The notes under the pieces are model-generated. The model worked only from the letters and a program-made list of their open reading frames with translations, was not told the DNA's origin and searched no databases. The position numbers were made by a program, and so were the translations under genes. Source: an uncultured Candidatus Saccharibacteria bacterium (GTDB lineage Bacteria > Patescibacteriota > Saccharimonadia > CAZHVB01). Taken from it: a stretch of 64,000 nucleotides of DNA. Positions within the stretch are counted from its first letter, which is position 1, and every line of letters starts with the position of its first letter. Of this stretch, positions 51,649 to 59,011 are shown piece after piece. The stretch spans positions 26,133 through 90,132 of the forward strand of contig CAZRIY010000002.1 of NCBI GenBank assembly GCA_964600295.1, read 5' to 3'.

Positions 51649-51668
51649 CCTGCCTGCCGGCAGGCAGG
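51649..51668. repeat. perfect 20-nt palindrome CCTGCCTGCCGGCAGGCAGG directly after the rpsJ stop
   Basis: Self-complementary over its full length; same family as the copies in nusA, rpoB and rplV. Confidence 0.7.
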
Positions 51669-51691
51669 TCGACACCGAAATCAAGATGTAG
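51668..51691 (+). repeat. second copy of the rpsJ 3' end (gtc gac acc gaa atc aag atg tag = VDTEIKM-stop)
   Basis: Differs from copy 1 (gtg gat act gaa att aaa atg taa, 51619-51642) only at synonymous positions. Confidence 0.65.
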
Positions 51692-51868
51692 ATGAAAAGA
51701 CTACCGAAGATGCTTAATCATCCGGTACCTATTTTATTAACATTAGGTGGGTTATTTATTGTAGCCTCGATCTTTATGGGCGAATTTTTTGTGATACCCG
51801 GGATTATTCTAATGATAATCGGAGTGTGGTACTGGAAGGGAACGGTTTGGCCATTCTCGGACAAATAA
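51692..51868 (+). CDS. small membrane protein, 58 aa (MKRLPKMLNHPVPILLTLGGLFIVASIFMGEFFVIPGIILMIIGVWYWKGTVWPFSDK)
   Basis: ORF bracketed by repeat copies 2 and 3, with two hydrophobic helices; it is below the ORF-track size cutoff. Confidence 0.4.
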   Translation: MKRLPKMLNHPVPILLTLGGLFIVASIFMGEFFVIPGIILMIIGVWYWKGTVWPFSDK

Positions 51869-51870
51869 TT

Positions 51871-51891
51871 GAAACCGAAATTAAGATGTAA
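51871..51891 (+). repeat. third copy of the rpsJ 3' end (gaa acc gaa att aag atg taa = ETEIKM-stop)
   Basis: Imperfect direct repeat of copies 1 and 2. Confidence 0.6.
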
Positions 51892-51904
51892 TTCTGATAG
51901 TTTC

Positions 51905-52441
51905 ATGGAACCCCAAGCCATCTCTAACAGCGAGCCATTGCCTATCGATGCGGTTACTGAGCTTCGATCTCAAATAGACGACCTCTTAATTGATATGAGA
52001 GAGTCTATAGAGGAGGTGGGGGAGCATCAGTATACCCATATATTAAAGACTTTTATGTCTGGAGCCAGAGAAATTATCATTGAAAAAAGTAAAACCGATG
52101 AGGACCCAGACTTCTTACGTTCGGTTGGCATCCGAGAGTTCATTAAGGATCCAAGTGGCCAGAAAGCGGTGCTAAGGACAGTCTATTATCTTTGGACAAA
52201 TCTGGATATAACTAAGGAATACCACATAGCGGATAATCGTGGACCATGGGAATTGAGCGAGCCGTTCAAAAAATTCTTAAGGATACTTAATGGAAGTGAT
52301 GAAGAGCTAAACCCGGCTGAGGAAGAGGAGATGTTGCGGATAGGAGGAGGTGGTGAATTGCGCGAATTCGCTAGAGACGCAGAAACCGTTTCAGGTGAAG
52401 AATTGACCCAAGTTAAAAAATTATTGGCTAACCTTAGCTAA
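51905..52441 (+). CDS. hypothetical acidic protein, 178 aa
   Basis: AT-rich ORF; start placed at MEPQ because the track's start lies inside repeat copy 3. Confidence 0.5.
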   Translation: MEPQAISNSEPLPIDAVTELRSQIDDLLIDMRESIEEVGEHQYTHILKTFMSGAREIIIEKSKTDEDPDFLRSVGIREFIKDPSGQKAVLRTVYYLWTNLDITKEYHIADNRGPWELSEPFKKFLRILNGSDEELNPAEEEEMLRIGGGGELREFARDAETVSGEELTQVKKLLANLS

Positions 52442-52450
52442 AAAAAACCG

Positions 52451-52466
52451 GGTAGCCAGGGCTACC
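52451..52466. terminator. hairpin ggtagcc-agg-gctacc with an A8 run upstream (reads as a T-run terminator on the minus strand)
   Basis: 6-bp GC stem; orientation ambiguous. Confidence 0.3.
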
Positions 52467-52470
52467 AAAA

Positions 52471-52499
52471 TTGCTAACACCAGCTATATATTATATAAT
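52471..52499 (+). promoter_or_regulatory. near-consensus sigma70 promoter TTGCTA-N17-TATAAT abutting the ATG at 52500 (possible leaderless transcript)
   Basis: Exact -10 consensus hexamer and 17-nt spacer. Confidence 0.4.
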
Positions 52500-52943
52500 A
52501 TGGTTATGGTTGGAGATACACCCGGTGCTCAGATTGAATCGAGAGTACATGATTTATTGGCTGAAATTAAAACGTCCGTCAAACGTCTTTTAGTAGCTGA
52601 GCGGATCCATTATAACGTTGAGGGTGAAGTCTATACTAAGTTTCGCGACTTCGACTCAGATACTAGCTCCTTGCGGGTTCAAGAGATGTCTTCCGATAGC
52701 AATATGAAAGATCCAGAATTTAATATCCATCTTTTTATATTCGACGAACTGCCTGCAAGCTCTGGAGATTACACTGCCTTGGATTTTAATCTATCATCTT
52801 CTAGATCGGTAACCGAAATTAGTGGCGTAAAGGACGGTCGCCATTATCAATATCCCGGTCGCGTATCTGATGCATCCGACCTTTCCGAATTAGCTGATTT
52901 GCTAAAGGACGCGCCCGCCCGGCAGACTACAGCTGATGTATAA
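52500..52943 (+). CDS. hypothetical acidic protein, 147 aa
   Basis: ORF immediately after the promoter-like element; weak N-terminal similarity to the 178-aa neighbour. Confidence 0.45.
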   Translation: MVMVGDTPGAQIESRVHDLLAEIKTSVKRLLVAERIHYNVEGEVYTKFRDFDSDTSSLRVQEMSSDSNMKDPEFNIHLFIFDELPASSGDYTALDFNLSSSRSVTEISGVKDGRHYQYPGRVSDASDLSELADLLKDAPARQTTADV

Positions 52944-52988
52944 AGAAAGCGCCCCGAGTCGGTTGTTGATTGACCCGGGGCGCTAACC

Positions 52989-53291
52989 CTAGAAGTTGTA
53001 GTTCGGCAATCGCCAGAGCTTGAGCCACGTGCTCATGATGACAAGTAGCCCGATCAGCATAATGACATCTCGACCACTGGCGAGAGGGAGATGGCGAGCT
53101 ATTGCCAGTGTGATGGCAATTATCTCCATCTCGATAACGATAGCGACGAGGGCCATCCATCCACGTGAACCCACTGGCTCACTATTGCCACCAGAATCAC
53201 CATAGAAGAATTCCTGGGGTGGTGGGGGAGGATCGTCGTAATGTTTAACGATCTCGTCGAAACTCTTATTTACATCAATGCTGTGGAGCAT
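52989..53291 (-). CDS. small membrane protein (100 aa; polyproline N-terminus, two transmembrane helices)
   Basis: Perfect AAGGAGGTGA Shine-Dalgarno 5 nt upstream on the minus strand, overlapping the stop of the upstream minus-strand gene. Confidence 0.55.
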   Translation of the reverse strand: MLHSIDVNKSFDEIVKHYDDPPPPPQEFFYGDSGGNSEPVGSRGWMALVAIVIEMEIIAITLAIARHLPLASGRDVIMLIGLLVIMSTWLKLWRLPNYNF

Positions 53292-53295
53292 TGGC

Positions 53296-53529
53296 TCACC
53301 TCCTTGGCCATATCAGCCAGACGACGATGATGGTGAAGGGCATCAGAAACAACAGGCTGACGATCAACCCCAACCCGCCATATCTATCTGGTTTGATGGC
53401 TGGCGCGATGGCAAAGATGAGCCAGATCGCCGCCAGCAGAAAAACGGTGAAGATCTTGACTGTATCGTCCGAGTTCATTGCTCGATCTTCTTCGTTGCTG
53501 AGAGGACGAAAGCCCAAAAACCACGGCAT
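53296..53529 (-). CDS. small membrane protein (77 aa, two transmembrane helices)
   Basis: Start placed at MPWF because AGGAGGTG lies upstream of it; the track's longer start is less likely. Confidence 0.5.
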   Translation of the reverse strand: MPWFLGFRPLSNEEDRAMNSDDTVKIFTVFLLAAIWLIFAIAPAIKPDRYGGLGLIVSLLFLMPFTIIVVWLIWPRR

Positions 53530-53655
53530 TTTGCACCTCCTAAGGTTCGGGTCTTCAACCACAGTGGCCGAAAACTATATCTAAGCCATATCATCAAAAA
53601 TAAATCCATGCAAGCAATATGGCAATCGGATATGGGGTGTGGTTAAATCAAGGAT

Positions 53656-53919
53656 ATGGCTAGATCAAAACAAAAAGTGGAACCAGATTCAGTCTATTTC
53701 TTAAAAATTTTACTGTTTTTCATCGTCGGTGCTCTCTGGCTGCGGCAGGATTTTGATGTACTACCTGGAATTAGCGCCTTACCGGTTGGCCTGGTTATCG
53801 GGCTGCTGTTTGCCAGGCATGAACATTTCATGATCGATCGCAAAATCGAATACTTGGTACTACTATCGGCCGCACTGCTGAGCTATTTGGCACCAATCGG
53901 CATCGTAATCGAAATCTAA
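53656..53919 (+). CDS. small membrane protein (87 aa, ~3 transmembrane helices)
   Basis: Hydrophobic ORF whose TAA overlaps the ATG of the downstream metalloprotease gene (TAATG). Confidence 0.5.
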   Translation: MARSKQKVEPDSVYFLKILLFFIVGALWLRQDFDVLPGISALPVGLVIGLLFARHEHFMIDRKIEYLVLLSAALLSYLAPIGIVIEI

Positions 53920-55664
53920 TGCGCCAATTTTTACGCAGAGTGAGGTGGTGGCGCAAAGACGCTCCGCGCCAGTTTTGGCTGGTAGTCGGGCTACTAATAT
54001 TGACTAGTGGCACAGTGGTTGCCCAAACTTTCCCAGTTAAACGTCAGCTGGTCTATGAGCCATGCCAAGCTAACTATGGTGAAACCGTTGGCGGTTGGGA
54101 CGGTGATGGTGATCAGGTTTGGAACGAACGCAACTTTCACTATGAAGTGCGCCGCTTCCGAATTGAAGCCGCTGCTCCTATCGGTTGGTTCCATAATGTT
54201 CAGGAGCAACCGCCTAGCCGATTGTCTACCGTCGATTGCCAACCAGAATTACAGGGTTTTGTTGACACTAATCATGACTCCTATCAATGGTTTGGCGCCC
54301 GCACCTCCGCTATTCGCTTGGGCATGCCGGACTTAGGAGAACTTAACCAGGGTGGTCGTATCAAAATCGATCAGCCCAGAACCAAACCGGATGATGCCGT
54401 TTCGCCGCCGATTTTTGGTGATAGCCACGGCCGGGCCGCGGCTTGGGTGGACGACGGCGCCCAGGCCAATCTAGTGACTACCGACAAGGGTCAGCAGCTG
54501 TTATGGTGCCAGGGCAACAACCAGCCGCTCAATCCCGATCAATCCTGCAACGATGTAGCCGATATTGGCGGCAAGTCGGTGAGGGGAGTAGGCTACTTAT
54601 TCGTTGAAGATAATTGCCCAAAGGCGGGCGGCGTTAACTGTGACCAAGCCACTGCCTGGTATAGACGCCAAAACCTCGATTACAGCCAGCTTATTGGCAG
54701 CAACCAGCGGGGCGAGCTTAATCCTTTTTACTTGCAGCTAGATGCGGTTTCAACCTACGCTAACCGGGTTGGAGCCTGGATGGTACTGACATTTAAATAC
54801 CCCAAGCTATCCAACATCAGCAATCAAGTCAGCCTAGATAAACAGACCTATCAGGTGGGCGAAACTATCACAGCCACCGCCGGTTTTTCCAAAATTGGTC
54901 CTACTGTTACCAACCTTAGTATCAATCCAGATCTCAGTAACCAGCCATTGCAAATTATTGCCAATTTTGAAACTTCCACCGGCAACTTGGAGGACATTAA
55001 TAAAGGAAAAGAAGCTGAAGCAGCCGCCAAGTTTAAGATCACTGATGCTGCCCAGCCCGGCCAGTGTTACAACCTAACCTTTAACTTTCAAGCGGAGAGC
55101 ATTTTGGAGGTTGATGGCAGCAGAGAGGTTAAACTGGCGCCGCTGGCTAGCCGTTACTGCATTGCCGCCCCTGCCAGCGCTACTTATACCTACAGTGTAA
55201 CCACCCGCGGCAATGTGCAAAGTGATGTCAATGAATTTGCCGATTTGGCAGCCGAAACACTAGCTTCGGTGTCGGGTTGGTCACAAGCTGGGGCTGGTTT
55301 TAGCCGAGTAAATAGCGGCGGGGATTTTACTTTGGTGCTGGCGGCGCCGGATCAAATGACATCATTTTCTAGCGGCTGCGATGCTACCTATAGTTGTCAG
55401 GCTGGTGGCTTTGTAATTATCAACGATGAACGCTGGCGAACAGCTACGCCGTCATGGAATAATAACGCCGGTAGCCTGCGTGATTATCGCCACATGGTGA
55501 TTAATCATGAGACTGGTCATTGGCTGGGCTTTGGCCACCTCAACTGCTCGGCCCCCGGCGCGGCGGCGCCAGTAATGCAGCAACAATCGATCAGCCTGCA
55601 GGGCTGCGCTCACAATCCTTGGCCGACGCCGGCCGAAATCCAGACTTTAAAAAGCCGTCTCTAG
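53919..55664 (+). CDS. secreted/membrane-anchored metzincin-like zinc metalloprotease (HExxHxxGxxH), 581 aa
   Basis: N-terminal signal anchor (FWLVVGLLILTSGTVVAQ) and a C-terminal HETGHWLGFGH motif followed by Cys/Met residues. The large middle region is uncharacterized. Confidence 0.6.
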   Translation: MRQFLRRVRWWRKDAPRQFWLVVGLLILTSGTVVAQTFPVKRQLVYEPCQANYGETVGGWDGDGDQVWNERNFHYEVRRFRIEAAAPIGWFHNVQEQPPSRLSTVDCQPELQGFVDTNHDSYQWFGARTSAIRLGMPDLGELNQGGRIKIDQPRTKPDDAVSPPIFGDSHGRAAAWVDDGAQANLVTTDKGQQLLWCQGNNQPLNPDQSCNDVADIGGKSVRGVGYLFVEDNCPKAGGVNCDQATAWYRRQNLDYSQLIGSNQRGELNPFYLQLDAVSTYANRVGAWMVLTFKYPKLSNISNQVSLDKQTYQVGETITATAGFSKIGPTVTNLSINPDLSNQPLQIIANFETSTGNLEDINKGKEAEAAAKFKITDAAQPGQCYNLTFNFQAESILEVDGSREVKLAPLASRYCIAAPASATYTYSVTTRGNVQSDVNEFADLAAETLASVSGWSQAGAGFSRVNSGGDFTLVLAAPDQMTSFSSGCDATYSCQAGGFVIINDERWRTATPSWNNNAGSLRDYRHMVINHETGHWLGFGHLNCSAPGAAAPVMQQQSISLQGCAHNPWPTPAEIQTLKSRL

Positions 55665-58241: not shown

Positions 58242-58586
58242 ATGAGTCGATCACTCAAAAAAGGACCCTACTTGGATGTCAAATTGATGGCTAAGATTAA
58301 GCGGCTAGGTGCTGGCGACCGGACGGTTATTAAGACCTGGGCTCGGTCCAGTACCATAGCTCCGGAGATGGTCGGCCGCACCATTGCTGTCCACAACGGC
58401 AAGACCCACTTGCCAGTGCTGATTACCGAAAATATGGTTGGTCATAAACTGGGTGAATTTTCTCCAACCCGCCGGTTTAAGAGCCACGGCGGTAAGCTAG
58501 CCAGAGAAGTAAGTAAAGGTAGCTCGCCACAAACTGGCGGCCAAACCGTGCCTAAGGCCGCACCGGCCGCCGAGAAGAAAGTCTAA
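58242..58586 (+). CDS. rpsS: 30S ribosomal protein S19 (with ~20-aa C-terminal tail)
   Basis: SRSLKKGPY...[11 protein letters not shown] core. Confidence 0.95.
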
Positions 58587-59011
58587 TGCAAGTCCAAGCT
58601 AAAGCTAAATCGTTGCGCATTCCGCCTCGTAAAATGAGTCTGGTGGCCTCGTTGGTGCGCGGCCGTAGCGTAATCGAGGCTATGACCATTTTGGAACATA
58701 CGCCGCGGCGAGCCGCCAAATCATTGCGCGAAGTCATCCGTAGTGCCCAGGCCAATGCCGAACACAATTTTAGCCTCGAAACAGATCAGCTGAGGTTATC
58801 TACCGTGATTGTTAGCCCTGGTTTTGTGCTTAAGCGTGCCCGAGCTGCTTCCAGGGGTACAATGCACCGGATTCGCCACCGCACCTCGAATGTGATGGTA
58901 GTTGTCGAATCACCTAATAAAGTAAGTAGCCTGCCTGCCGGACAGGCAGGTAAGAAGTCGGTGCAGCCAAAACCCACCACCAAGGAAGGTCGCCATGGGC
59001 CAAAAAGTTAA
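58586..59011 (+). CDS. rplV: 50S ribosomal protein L22 (extended C-terminal tail carrying a palindrome copy)
   Basis: L22 core; tail reads KVSSLPAGQAGKKSVQPKPTTKEGRHGPKS. Confidence 0.95.
   Translation: MQVQAKAKSLRIPPRKMSLVASLVRGRSVIEAMTILEHTPRRAAKSLREVIRSAQANAEHNFSLETDQLRLSTVIVSPGFVLKRARAASRGTMHRIRHRTSNVMVVVESPNKVSSLPAGQAGKKSVQPKPTTKEGRHGPKS
58930..58950. repeat. GC-rich palindromic repeat copy (cctgcctgccggacaggcagg) in the rplV 3' coding tail
   Basis: Same palindrome as the 51649 copy with a 1-nt insertion; encodes LPAGQAG in frame. Confidence 0.6.

Follow-up and report, generated by a model that had tools for sequence, protein, structure and literature searches.

A 20-nt palindrome repeated in a Saccharibacteria genome and its association with small GIY-YIG nuclease genes

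Why does one GC-rich palindrome occur at four places in a short piece of a bacterial genome, each time at the end of a gene for transcription or translation? The DNA in question, called the window here, is a stretch of 64,000 nt from an uncultured Candidatus Saccharibacteria bacterium. It carries the palindrome in the 3′ coding tails of nusA, rpoB and rplV and just behind rpsJ. The same element, which we name PAL, is a 20-nt GC-rich palindrome made of CCTGCCTGCC followed by GGCAGGCAGG, in which the central 1-2 bases vary. As judged from the sequences compared here, PAL is a conserved cis partner of widespread genes for ~80-aa stand-alone GIY-YIG proteins (UPF0213/SLX1-like) that lie beside tRNA genes. 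We consider it probable that the palindromes of the window are solo copies of this nuclease-associated mobile element, kept only where insertion was tolerated.

Palindrome copies in the window and in related genes

The window was scanned with the pattern CCTGCC(N0-10)GGCAGG, and 100 dinucleotide-preserving shuffles of the window served as the null. Seven overlapping matches were found at four sites, whereas the shuffles gave a mean of 0.04. All four palindromes listed in a preliminary description of this DNA are therefore present, and the peptides given there (LPAGRQG, LPASRQG and LPAGQAG) are correct. The copies and their genes, the latter identified by Pfam, are as follows.

20051-20070, + strand: nusA copy, T-centre variant CCTGCCTGCCGGTAGGCAGG, in frame in the NusA tail
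41837-41856 (core 41841-41856), + strand: rpoB copy, decayed 20-mer ATTGCCTGCCAGCAGGCAGG, in the RpoB tail, translated KLPASRQG
51649-51668, unstranded: rpsJ-adjacent copy, perfect 20-nt palindrome CCTGCCTGCCGGCAGGCAGG, inside a displaced pseudo-copy of the rpsJ 3′ end
58930-58950, + strand: rplV copy, 21-nt AC-centre variant CCTGCCTGCCGGACAGGCAGG, in frame in the L22 tail
18903-20228: nusA
38352-41876: rpoB
51274-51642: rpsJ
58586-59011: rplV

The nusA copy forms aa 383-390 of the 441-aa NusA (translated NLPAGRQG) and the rplV copy forms aa 116-122 of the 141-aa L22 (LPAGQAG). The rpoB copy ATTGCCTGCCAGCAGGCAGG has 3 mismatches to the 20-mer, and CCTGCCTGCCGGCAGGCAGG starts 6 nt past the rpsJ stop codon (51640-51642). 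All three coding copies lie past the last Pfam domain, which ends at aa 360 in NusA (KH), aa 1099 in RpoB (domain 7) and aa 108 in L22. They had been placed 20-60 nt before the stop codon. This fits the rplV copy (58 nt) and is close for the rpoB copy (18 nt), but the nusA copy lies 158 nt from its stop. The effective nusA insert is probably 21 nt, that is the 20-mer plus the G at 20071, because deleting 20 nt causes a frameshift to a stop whereas deleting 21 nt restores the Lys-rich tail. The same frame-keeping by “palindrome plus G” is found in ScpB of another Saccharibacteria genome (L095). A sequencing or assembly artefact was ruled out by the in-frame copies, by an independent Logan assembly, by the presence of PAL in cultured isolates and complete genomes, and by the sequence variants.

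About 120 homologues each of L22, NusA and RpoB were compared; their names place the organism among the Saccharibacteria. LPAGQAG occurred among the 120 L22 homologues only in the window's own protein. The closest L22 gene (P0002/L002, 68% identical) encodes the same Lys-rich tail (AATAAAGTAAGT...AAGAAGTC) minus exactly the 21-nt palindrome, and its DNA matches window rplV on both sides of the 21-nt gap. An independent assembly of the window's own organism (L001) carries the rplV palindrome. No LPAGRQG-like peptide was found at the NusA position in 120 homologues; two of the 120 match a loose pattern, one of them in an apparently frameshifted stretch, and the position of the match was left unchecked in both. 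The tail of NusA relatives ends ...K(L)KKKSELESSLLEAIEEHG, which aligns with the window's KPASKQDLEAALIESVDKS directly after the palindrome. The window-type palindrome peptide was also missing from the tails of 120 RpoB relatives, which are variable and acidic. One RpoB relative (L287, top matches Saccharibacteria) has an independent, partly decayed 21-nt copy, CCTGCCTACCGGACAGGCGGG, at 909-929. It is translated SLPTGQAG and sits 45 nt before the stop of its own rpoB.

Since relatives have tails without the palindrome, these alignments indicate that the tails pre-exist and that the palindrome is a lineage-specific insert of ~7 codons. The proposal that it creates C-terminal extensions is thus not upheld: the relatives' tails, Lys-rich or acidic, lack PAL, which adds only ~7 residues. 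Nor did the relatives' NusA, RpoB and L22 yield the LPAGRQG-like peptide without the palindrome, so a DNA-level origin is favoured.

Insertion and distribution of PAL

Insertion of PAL can be followed at sites that exist in both a filled and an empty form. A paralogous empty site spanning the junction was found within 1.2 kb for 17 of 235 PAL sites, compared with 0 of 194 random controls. Sixteen filled/empty pairs were aligned. About 11 gave sharp junctions, with a 20-nt insertion (22 nt for one variant) and no target duplication; a few alignments were ambiguous. Two phage protein families held exact 21-nt in-frame filled/empty pairs. PAL was nested in PAL, just off centre, in five loci (L026, L036, L077, L084 and L257) and lay within unrelated hairpin repeats in three (L163, L166 and L168). 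The precise filled/empty sites, the nested copies and the absence from orthologues bear out the earlier suggestion that the palindromes are footprints of a mobile palindromic element.

Across genomes, 38% of PAL copies were in long open reading frames (ORFs) compared with 82% of random positions, and the other 62% lay outside; these coding calls are ORF-based and approximate in high-GC loci. In the window, by contrast, three of four copies are inside genes. In loci of ≤55% GC, long ORFs contained 13 of 34 copies of the 21-nt forms versus 8 of 100 of the 20-nt forms (Fisher p=1e-4).

Distribution was scanned with the pattern CCTGCCTGCCGG(N1-2)AGGCAGG in genome contigs, with one genome per species, and in viral contigs. 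The genome scan gave at least 120 matches spanning more than 10 phyla. Those listed include Patescibacteria, or candidate phyla radiation (CPR), with many classes, Omnitrophota, Bacteroidota, Planctomycetota, Bdellovibrionales, Gammaproteobacteria, Nitrospirota, Chloroflexota, Thermodesulfobacteriota and others. Winogradskyella, Flagellimonas and Olivibacter are cultured Bacteroidota among the carriers. Complete genomes with PAL include those of WWE3 RIFOXYC1_FULL_40_10, Winogradskyella echinorum KCTC 22026, Flagellimonas yonaguniensis and Olivibacter oleidegradans. We estimate that fewer than 10 matches would occur by chance in the whole genome collection, assuming equal base frequencies. In viral contigs, 84 stretches held PAL versus 0 for a composition-matched control palindrome, and some phage contigs held 5-7 copies. 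The centre of PAL is most often C (66) or T (34), and several 2-nt forms occur. Across phyla and phages, PAL is present in either orientation and in both intergenic and coding DNA. All three of its reading frames are used outside the window, as PACRQAG (L112), LPAGRQ (L024, L095) and LPVRQAG (L146).

The palindrome family had been described as peculiar to this genome, which the identical 20-mer in many phyla and in phage contigs contradicts. It had also been described as specifically decorating transcription and translation genes. In other Saccharibacteria, PAL is found in FtsK and ScpB and in spacers beside aminoacyl-tRNA synthetase and RecJ genes, and overall most copies are intergenic, so this specificity is lost as well. 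We found no description of the PAL string, its encoded peptides or a GIY-YIG gene paired with such a palindrome in the searchable literature, whose coverage is incomplete, so an earlier description elsewhere is possible.

Two further settings of PAL were observed. In several phyla, including Bacteroidota, Planctomycetota and a metagenome-assembled genome (MAG) of CPR Uhrbacteria, PAL often lies within short tandem heptamer-like repeats (L091, L101, L085, L113, L058 and L074). In some phage contigs (L163, L166) it is inserted in a widespread CCCCTCTCC..GGGAGAGGGG..GGGGGTGAGG repeat.

GIY-YIG genes, tRNA cassettes and the rpsJ end

In the pattern scans, PAL was found 20-67 nt upstream of a same-strand ORF of ~80 aa in five loci (L070, L116, L035, L112 and L191). 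This ORF encodes a stand-alone GIY-YIG domain (Pfam PF01541, E 1e-14 to 1e-17). The proteins are 77-84 aa long and consist of the catalytic domain only, with no separate DNA-binding domain. The GIY, YIG, Arg and Glu residues do not vary in their alignment. Their best sequence matches among solved structures are the UPF0213 proteins BH0048 and EF2693 (E~1e-12), followed by SLX1 (7e-6 to 4e-4); I-TevI is more distant. An NCBIfam search with the nuclease gave no match. The searchable literature describes no mobile-element role and no cognate palindrome for UPF0213 proteins.

Metagenomes were scanned by alignment of the GIY-YIG proteins alone, which recovered 80 loci with relatives 40-57% identical. 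Of the 80 loci, 64 have PAL adjoining the GIY-YIG gene. In most cases this is the exact 20-mer, with 13-46 nt between its end and the start codon. An intact tRNA gene starts ≤40 nt downstream of the ORF in 50 of the 80 loci, with PAL upstream in 42 of the 50. In another arrangement, an intact tRNA gene ends ≤100 nt upstream of the ORF (10/80), with PAL downstream in 6 of the 10. On the PAL side of the GIY-YIG gene there is a redundant partial, sometimes full, copy of the same tRNA, and the intact tRNA is on the other side. PAL splits this spare copy in the D loop (after GGTA, GGTAGA or GGAA), in the anticodon loop or in the T loop, sometimes twice or in nested form. One such PAL/GIY-YIG cassette is in a Saccharibacteria MAG (L116).

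When all flanking ORFs were clustered, the GIY-YIG family was the only recurrent neighbour of PAL, aside from phage structural genes with in-frame inserts. No transposase-like family emerged from this clustering; no search for REP-associated tyrosine transposases (RAYT) was made. PAL remains invariant while the GIY-YIG protein diverges to ~45% identity, and because of this we take PAL to be a recognised site rather than debris. A fixed orientation of asymmetric PAL variants relative to the nuclease gene was ruled out, as both orientations occur.

Several related arrangements were seen. Five loci (L241, L269, L272, L072 at about 880-915, and L258) have related GIY-YIG genes with other palindromes, such as CCCGCCCGAACGTACCGTTCGGTACGGGCGGG and CCCGCCTGCCGACGGCGGGCAGG, at the same D-loop position of the tRNA. 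The presence of other palindromes at the same sites suggests that nuclease and palindrome co-vary as pairs. A further subgroup of GIY-YIG genes (L229, L245, L247 and L274) lies away from tRNA genes and lacks PAL, each gene being inside a long hairpin (CCGGGTAGTGAAA...TTCTACTACCCGG). In L112 (2790-4895), PAL and the GIY-YIG domain are in frame in a conserved linker of a 701-aa ORF, which on inspection by eye resembles HsdS, the specificity subunit of type I restriction systems. Because the cassette is inserted in frame, this nuclease would be made as part of the host protein. In L248 (1-800), three tandem tRNA-like genes stand behind a PAL/GIY-YIG/tRNA-Arg cassette, and ARAGORN calls them 93-97-nt “tRNA-Pro”. 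Their acceptor, D and T arms are of the Arg type and their anticodon arm (GCA) is that of Cys; an insert of 16-20 nt derived from PAL separates positions 9 and 10. The only tRNA gene of the window itself, tRNA-Leu(tag) at 33576-33662, has neither PAL nor a GIY-YIG cassette. The listed ORF 33582-34271 overlaps this tRNA gene; its real start probably lies further downstream.

The rpsJ copy of the window can be compared with these cassettes. The features at this gene end are as follows.

51616-51642, + strand: functional rpsJ 3′ end (GGA GTG GAT ACT GAA ATT AAA ATG TAA; Pfam S10 domain to aa 121 of 122)
51645-51691 (51645-51648 plus 51669-51691), + strand: pseudo-copy of the final 27 nt of rpsJ, split by the palindrome 4 nt from its gene-proximal edge
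51692-51868: 58-aa membrane ORF, between rpsJ-end copies 2 and 3
51874-51891 (18 nt), + strand: third partial copy of the rpsJ end, ACCGAAATTAAGATGTAA, behind the 58-aa membrane ORF and without the palindrome

Deleting 51649-51668 joins GGCG to TCGACACCGAAATCAAGATGTAG and gives GGC GTC GAC ACC GAA ATC AAG ATG TAG. This encodes GVDTEIKM and a stop codon, the peptide of the true rpsJ end. The pseudo-copy and the functional end (51616-51642) differ at 6 positions, all of them synonymous or in the stop codon. A duplicate decaying neutrally would not show such a pattern, so the best reading is that the two ends are alleles of diverged lineages that came together. At this locus the intact gene end is followed, after a few bases, by a pseudo-copy that PAL splits near its proximal edge. 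The order mirrors that of the tRNA cassettes (type B), minus the nuclease gene.

The rpsJ 3′ end is present three times in the window, and the copies differ at synonymous or stop positions only. The set of copies suggests repeated arrival of small cassettes, each with its own rpsJ end. In a relative with the same gene order (L288), rpsJ ends in the same peptide, followed by a plain hairpin, and there is no PAL in 20 kb. A ~4-kb non-ribosomal block (window 51692-55664) separates rpsJ from rplC and ends with an 87-aa ORF and a 581-aa DUF3152 protein. The equivalent place in L288 (4096-7134) has two NUDIX genes, a 94-aa ORF and DUF3152. As L288 keeps the DUF3152 pair in the same place, this pair is conserved and the rpsJ-proximal part is variable. 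An integrated island between rpsJ and rplC was considered and rejected: no integrase or att repeats were found, and the DUF3152 block, being kept in a relative, is an old feature separate from PAL.

The window has two other hairpins, GCACTC-N9-GAGTGC, at 20282-20302 and 37506-37530, upstream of a clpC-like gene and of clpP. We take them to fit the consensus of the CIRCE/HrcA operator (controlling inverted repeat of chaperone expression), TTAGCACTC-N9-GAGTGCTAA.

Proposed explanation, alternatives and known systems

We propose that the GIY-YIG mini-nuclease, which is related to structure-specific nucleases, recognises PAL together with hairpin loops in single-stranded or extruded DNA. It would move PAL both in cis and in trans, in the way proposed for RAYT transposases and repetitive extragenic palindromes (REPs). 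Purifying selection would leave PAL where it is harmless, which here means the protein tails past the last Pfam domain (Lys/Ala-rich near the inserts) and the dead rpsJ end; in a gene-dense Saccharibacteria genome, PAL would survive only in such dispensable DNA. The rpsJ copy would be what is left of a cassette-type insertion that carried in a foreign rpsJ end and from which the nuclease gene later disappeared. Neither the LPAGRQG-type heptapeptides nor the hairpins in the mRNA would have a function; they would be by-products. We also speculate that PAL in the spare tRNA copy may protect the cassette by cutting direct-repeat homology into pieces shorter than ~20 nt.

A bolder proposal, which we offer tentatively and with more doubt than belief, is that PAL and the ~80-aa GIY-YIG gene form an undescribed class of mobile element. 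The mini-nuclease would move the 20-nt hairpin into hairpin loops of single-stranded DNA. The element would multiply beside tRNA genes: part of the tRNA would be duplicated and the spare copy inactivated by the hairpin. It would spread between phyla, probably on phages, and leave in-frame heptapeptides in RpoB, NusA, L22, FtsK and ScpB.

Several points weigh against a nuclease-moved element as the source of the window copies. No GIY-YIG gene was found in the window by tblastn and profile search. The link between nuclease and PAL is one of association; PAL could instead lie next to the gene as a landing pad, as a scar of immunity or as a hairpin that regulates the cassette. Solo insertions show no clear target consensus apart from a purine at -1 and flanks of A..T or G..G, and the target sites in the window are not obviously hairpin loops. 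The edges of the nusA and rpoB inserts are inferred rather than fixed to the base, as the tails of relatives are too diverged. Finally, all four window sites are in or just after highly expressed information-processing genes, which by our estimate make up about one third of the window. There may be a real bias toward highly transcribed DNA that the tolerance argument does not fully explain.

An unlikely alternative is that PAL itself is immobile and marks, as a scar or a sign of immunity, the site where a GIY-YIG homing cassette cleaved or inserted; solo copies would be leftovers after deletion of the nuclease gene. PAL does occupy a fixed place in the cassettes, 4-20 nt from the edge of the redundant gene copy. 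The rpsJ copy has the cassette architecture without a nuclease gene, and in L029 and L056 tRNA pseudo-fragments hold PAL and no GIY-YIG gene. However, L22, the phage proteins and ScpB hold clean 21-nt inserts that lack both a duplication and any remains of a cassette, and PAL is inserted in PAL and in unrelated repeats far from any GIY-YIG gene. A scar would also not be expected to stay an identical 20-mer across phyla while the nuclease falls to ~45% identity. Movement or maintenance of PAL by other machinery, with the GIY-YIG adjacency secondary, is much less likely; candidates would be a Y1 transposase of the insertion sequence (IS) IS200/IS605 type or of the RAYT type, a restriction-modification system, or phage recombination. 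Insertion into hairpin loops without target duplication is typical of single-strand Y1 transposition (IS608, REP/RAYT), PAL is frequent in phage contigs, and in the genome scan fewer than half of the PAL sites have a GIY-YIG gene ≤200 nt away; these points would agree with such machinery. As to restriction-modification, PAL contains GCCGGC and, with the common A...T flanks, two inverted ACCTGC sites. Yet the GIY-YIG family is the only recurrent neighbour, apart from the phage genes with inserts, a protein-only search recovered PAL in most of its loci, and no conserved left-flank tetranucleotide of the IS200/IS605 type was seen.

The remaining alternatives give the window palindromes a function of their own. 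The hairpins could be RNA elements selected by the host in these operons, where they would stabilise mRNA 3′ ends, be processed by RNase or act as attenuators. As RNA they form stable folds (-13 to -21 kcal/mol), all four are near the 3′ ends of highly expressed genes, and another Saccharibacteria lineage has independently acquired PAL in its rpoB tail. We nevertheless regard this as improbable, only marginally better placed than other machinery. No close relative examined has the hairpins, the rpoB copy is decaying, and the same sequence occurs in both orientations, in intergenic and coding DNA, across phyla and phages. No sense-strand T-tract or terminator-like site was called at any of the four copies, whose flanks lack T runs, and an Rfam 15 search of the window gave a single match, its tRNA-Leu (33576-33659), and none to a palindrome. 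The terminator or attenuator role raised in the preliminary description is therefore not supported. Selection on an LPAGRQG-like peptide in the protein tails, as the force behind the DNA pattern, is effectively refuted. All three coding copies are in frame with similar heptapeptides, and S10 naturally ends NLPAGVD..., a superficial resemblance. But the peptide is not at these positions in the homologues compared (the two flagged NusA matches being unchecked), one RpoB relative has an independent palindrome elsewhere in its tail, all three reading frames of PAL are used in other genomes, and most copies are non-coding. The likeness to S10 vanishes after precise removal of PAL. An S10 “LPAG” as the natural half-site that seeded the palindrome was dropped for the same reason, as removal of the 20-mer leaves GVDTEIKM without LPAG.

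If PAL is indeed a mobile element paired with the GIY-YIG gene, a 20-base sequence is a selfish element in a large part of the Bacteria and their viruses, together with one of the smallest nuclease genes known. PAL would be among the smallest mobile DNA units known, and the window palindromes would need no regulatory explanation. The uncharacterised UPF0213-type GIY-YIG proteins would gain a concrete, testable role, and hairpin-directed DNA insertion would have a new model beside REP/RAYT and IS200/IS605. An explanation would be at hand for the unusual heptapeptides inserted in universal marker proteins and for the tRNA pseudo-fragments of CPR and Bacteroidota genomes. PAL would also repeatedly cause breaks in assemblies and false indels in phylogenies of ribosomal proteins and RpoB.

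Among known systems, PAL is most readily compared with REPs, their paired form (REPIN) and RAYT. These are also short, GC-rich, dispersed palindromes without target duplication. REPs are mostly extragenic; of the PAL copies, 62% in other genomes lie outside long ORFs, but three of the four in the window are inside genes. In both cases the repeat flanks a nuclease-type gene that is dedicated to it and single-copy, and trans-mobilisation of the hairpin is the working model. However, the partner there is an HUH/Y1 transposase and here a GIY-YIG nuclease. A REP is an imperfect palindrome of 30-40 nt or a doublet, specific to a species or clade, whereas PAL is a single perfect 20-nt palindrome, identical across more than 10 phyla and phages. 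PAL further differs in its apparently low copy number per genome and in a partner gene joined to tRNA genes and a duplicated tRNA fragment. Miniature inverted-repeat transposable elements (MITEs) derive from insertion sequences and have terminal inverted repeats and target duplication, whereas PAL is a bare palindrome with no internal sequence. The label “REP/MITE-like” given to the family therefore fits poorly: there is no target duplication, and the recurrent neighbour is a GIY-YIG nuclease gene.

Rickettsia palindromic elements insert in frame in genes and add a short peptide at permissive sites. PAL does the same, as seen in L22 compared with L002, in the phage pairs, in FtsK and ScpB, and in the enrichment of 21-nt forms in ORFs. 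Those elements, however, are 100-150 bp long, belong to Rickettsia/Rickettsiales and relatives and have no known nuclease, whereas PAL is 20-21 nt, unrelated in sequence and cross-phylum. The mobile GC clusters of fungal and algal mitochondria are likewise short GC-rich palindromes in AT-richer genomes, intergenic and sometimes in frame, and often near homing-endonuclease genes. They differ from PAL in compartment, hosts and sequences, and we know of no report of a fixed pairing with a defined mini-nuclease gene.

The partner gene resembles the free-standing GIY-YIG homing endonucleases, such as I-TevI and the Seg proteins of phage T4 (for example SegB in a tRNA gene cluster). It shares their GIY-YIG domain and its place beside conserved genes, in other genomes though not in the window, as well as the link to local duplication or amplification of tRNA-region DNA. 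A 2026 paper (PMC13096335) concerns segmental amplification driven by SegB. Those enzymes have a DNA-binding domain; the ~80-aa partner has none and is nearer to UPF0213/SLX1 than to I-TevI. To our knowledge, no invariant palindrome that splits a redundant copy of the target has been described for Seg or Tev homing. UPF0213 (YhbQ-like) proteins and SLX1 are stand-alone GIY-YIG folds like the partner. SLX1 cuts branched and hairpin-like DNA structures; unlike the partner, it works with SLX4 in eukaryotic repair. PAL thus lacks defining features of each of these systems: no Y1 partner was found, the repeat is not tied to a species, the target is not duplicated, the partner has no DNA-binding domain, and the length is only 20 nt. 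There is a substantial chance that PAL and its GIY-YIG gene represent a new class of mobile element.

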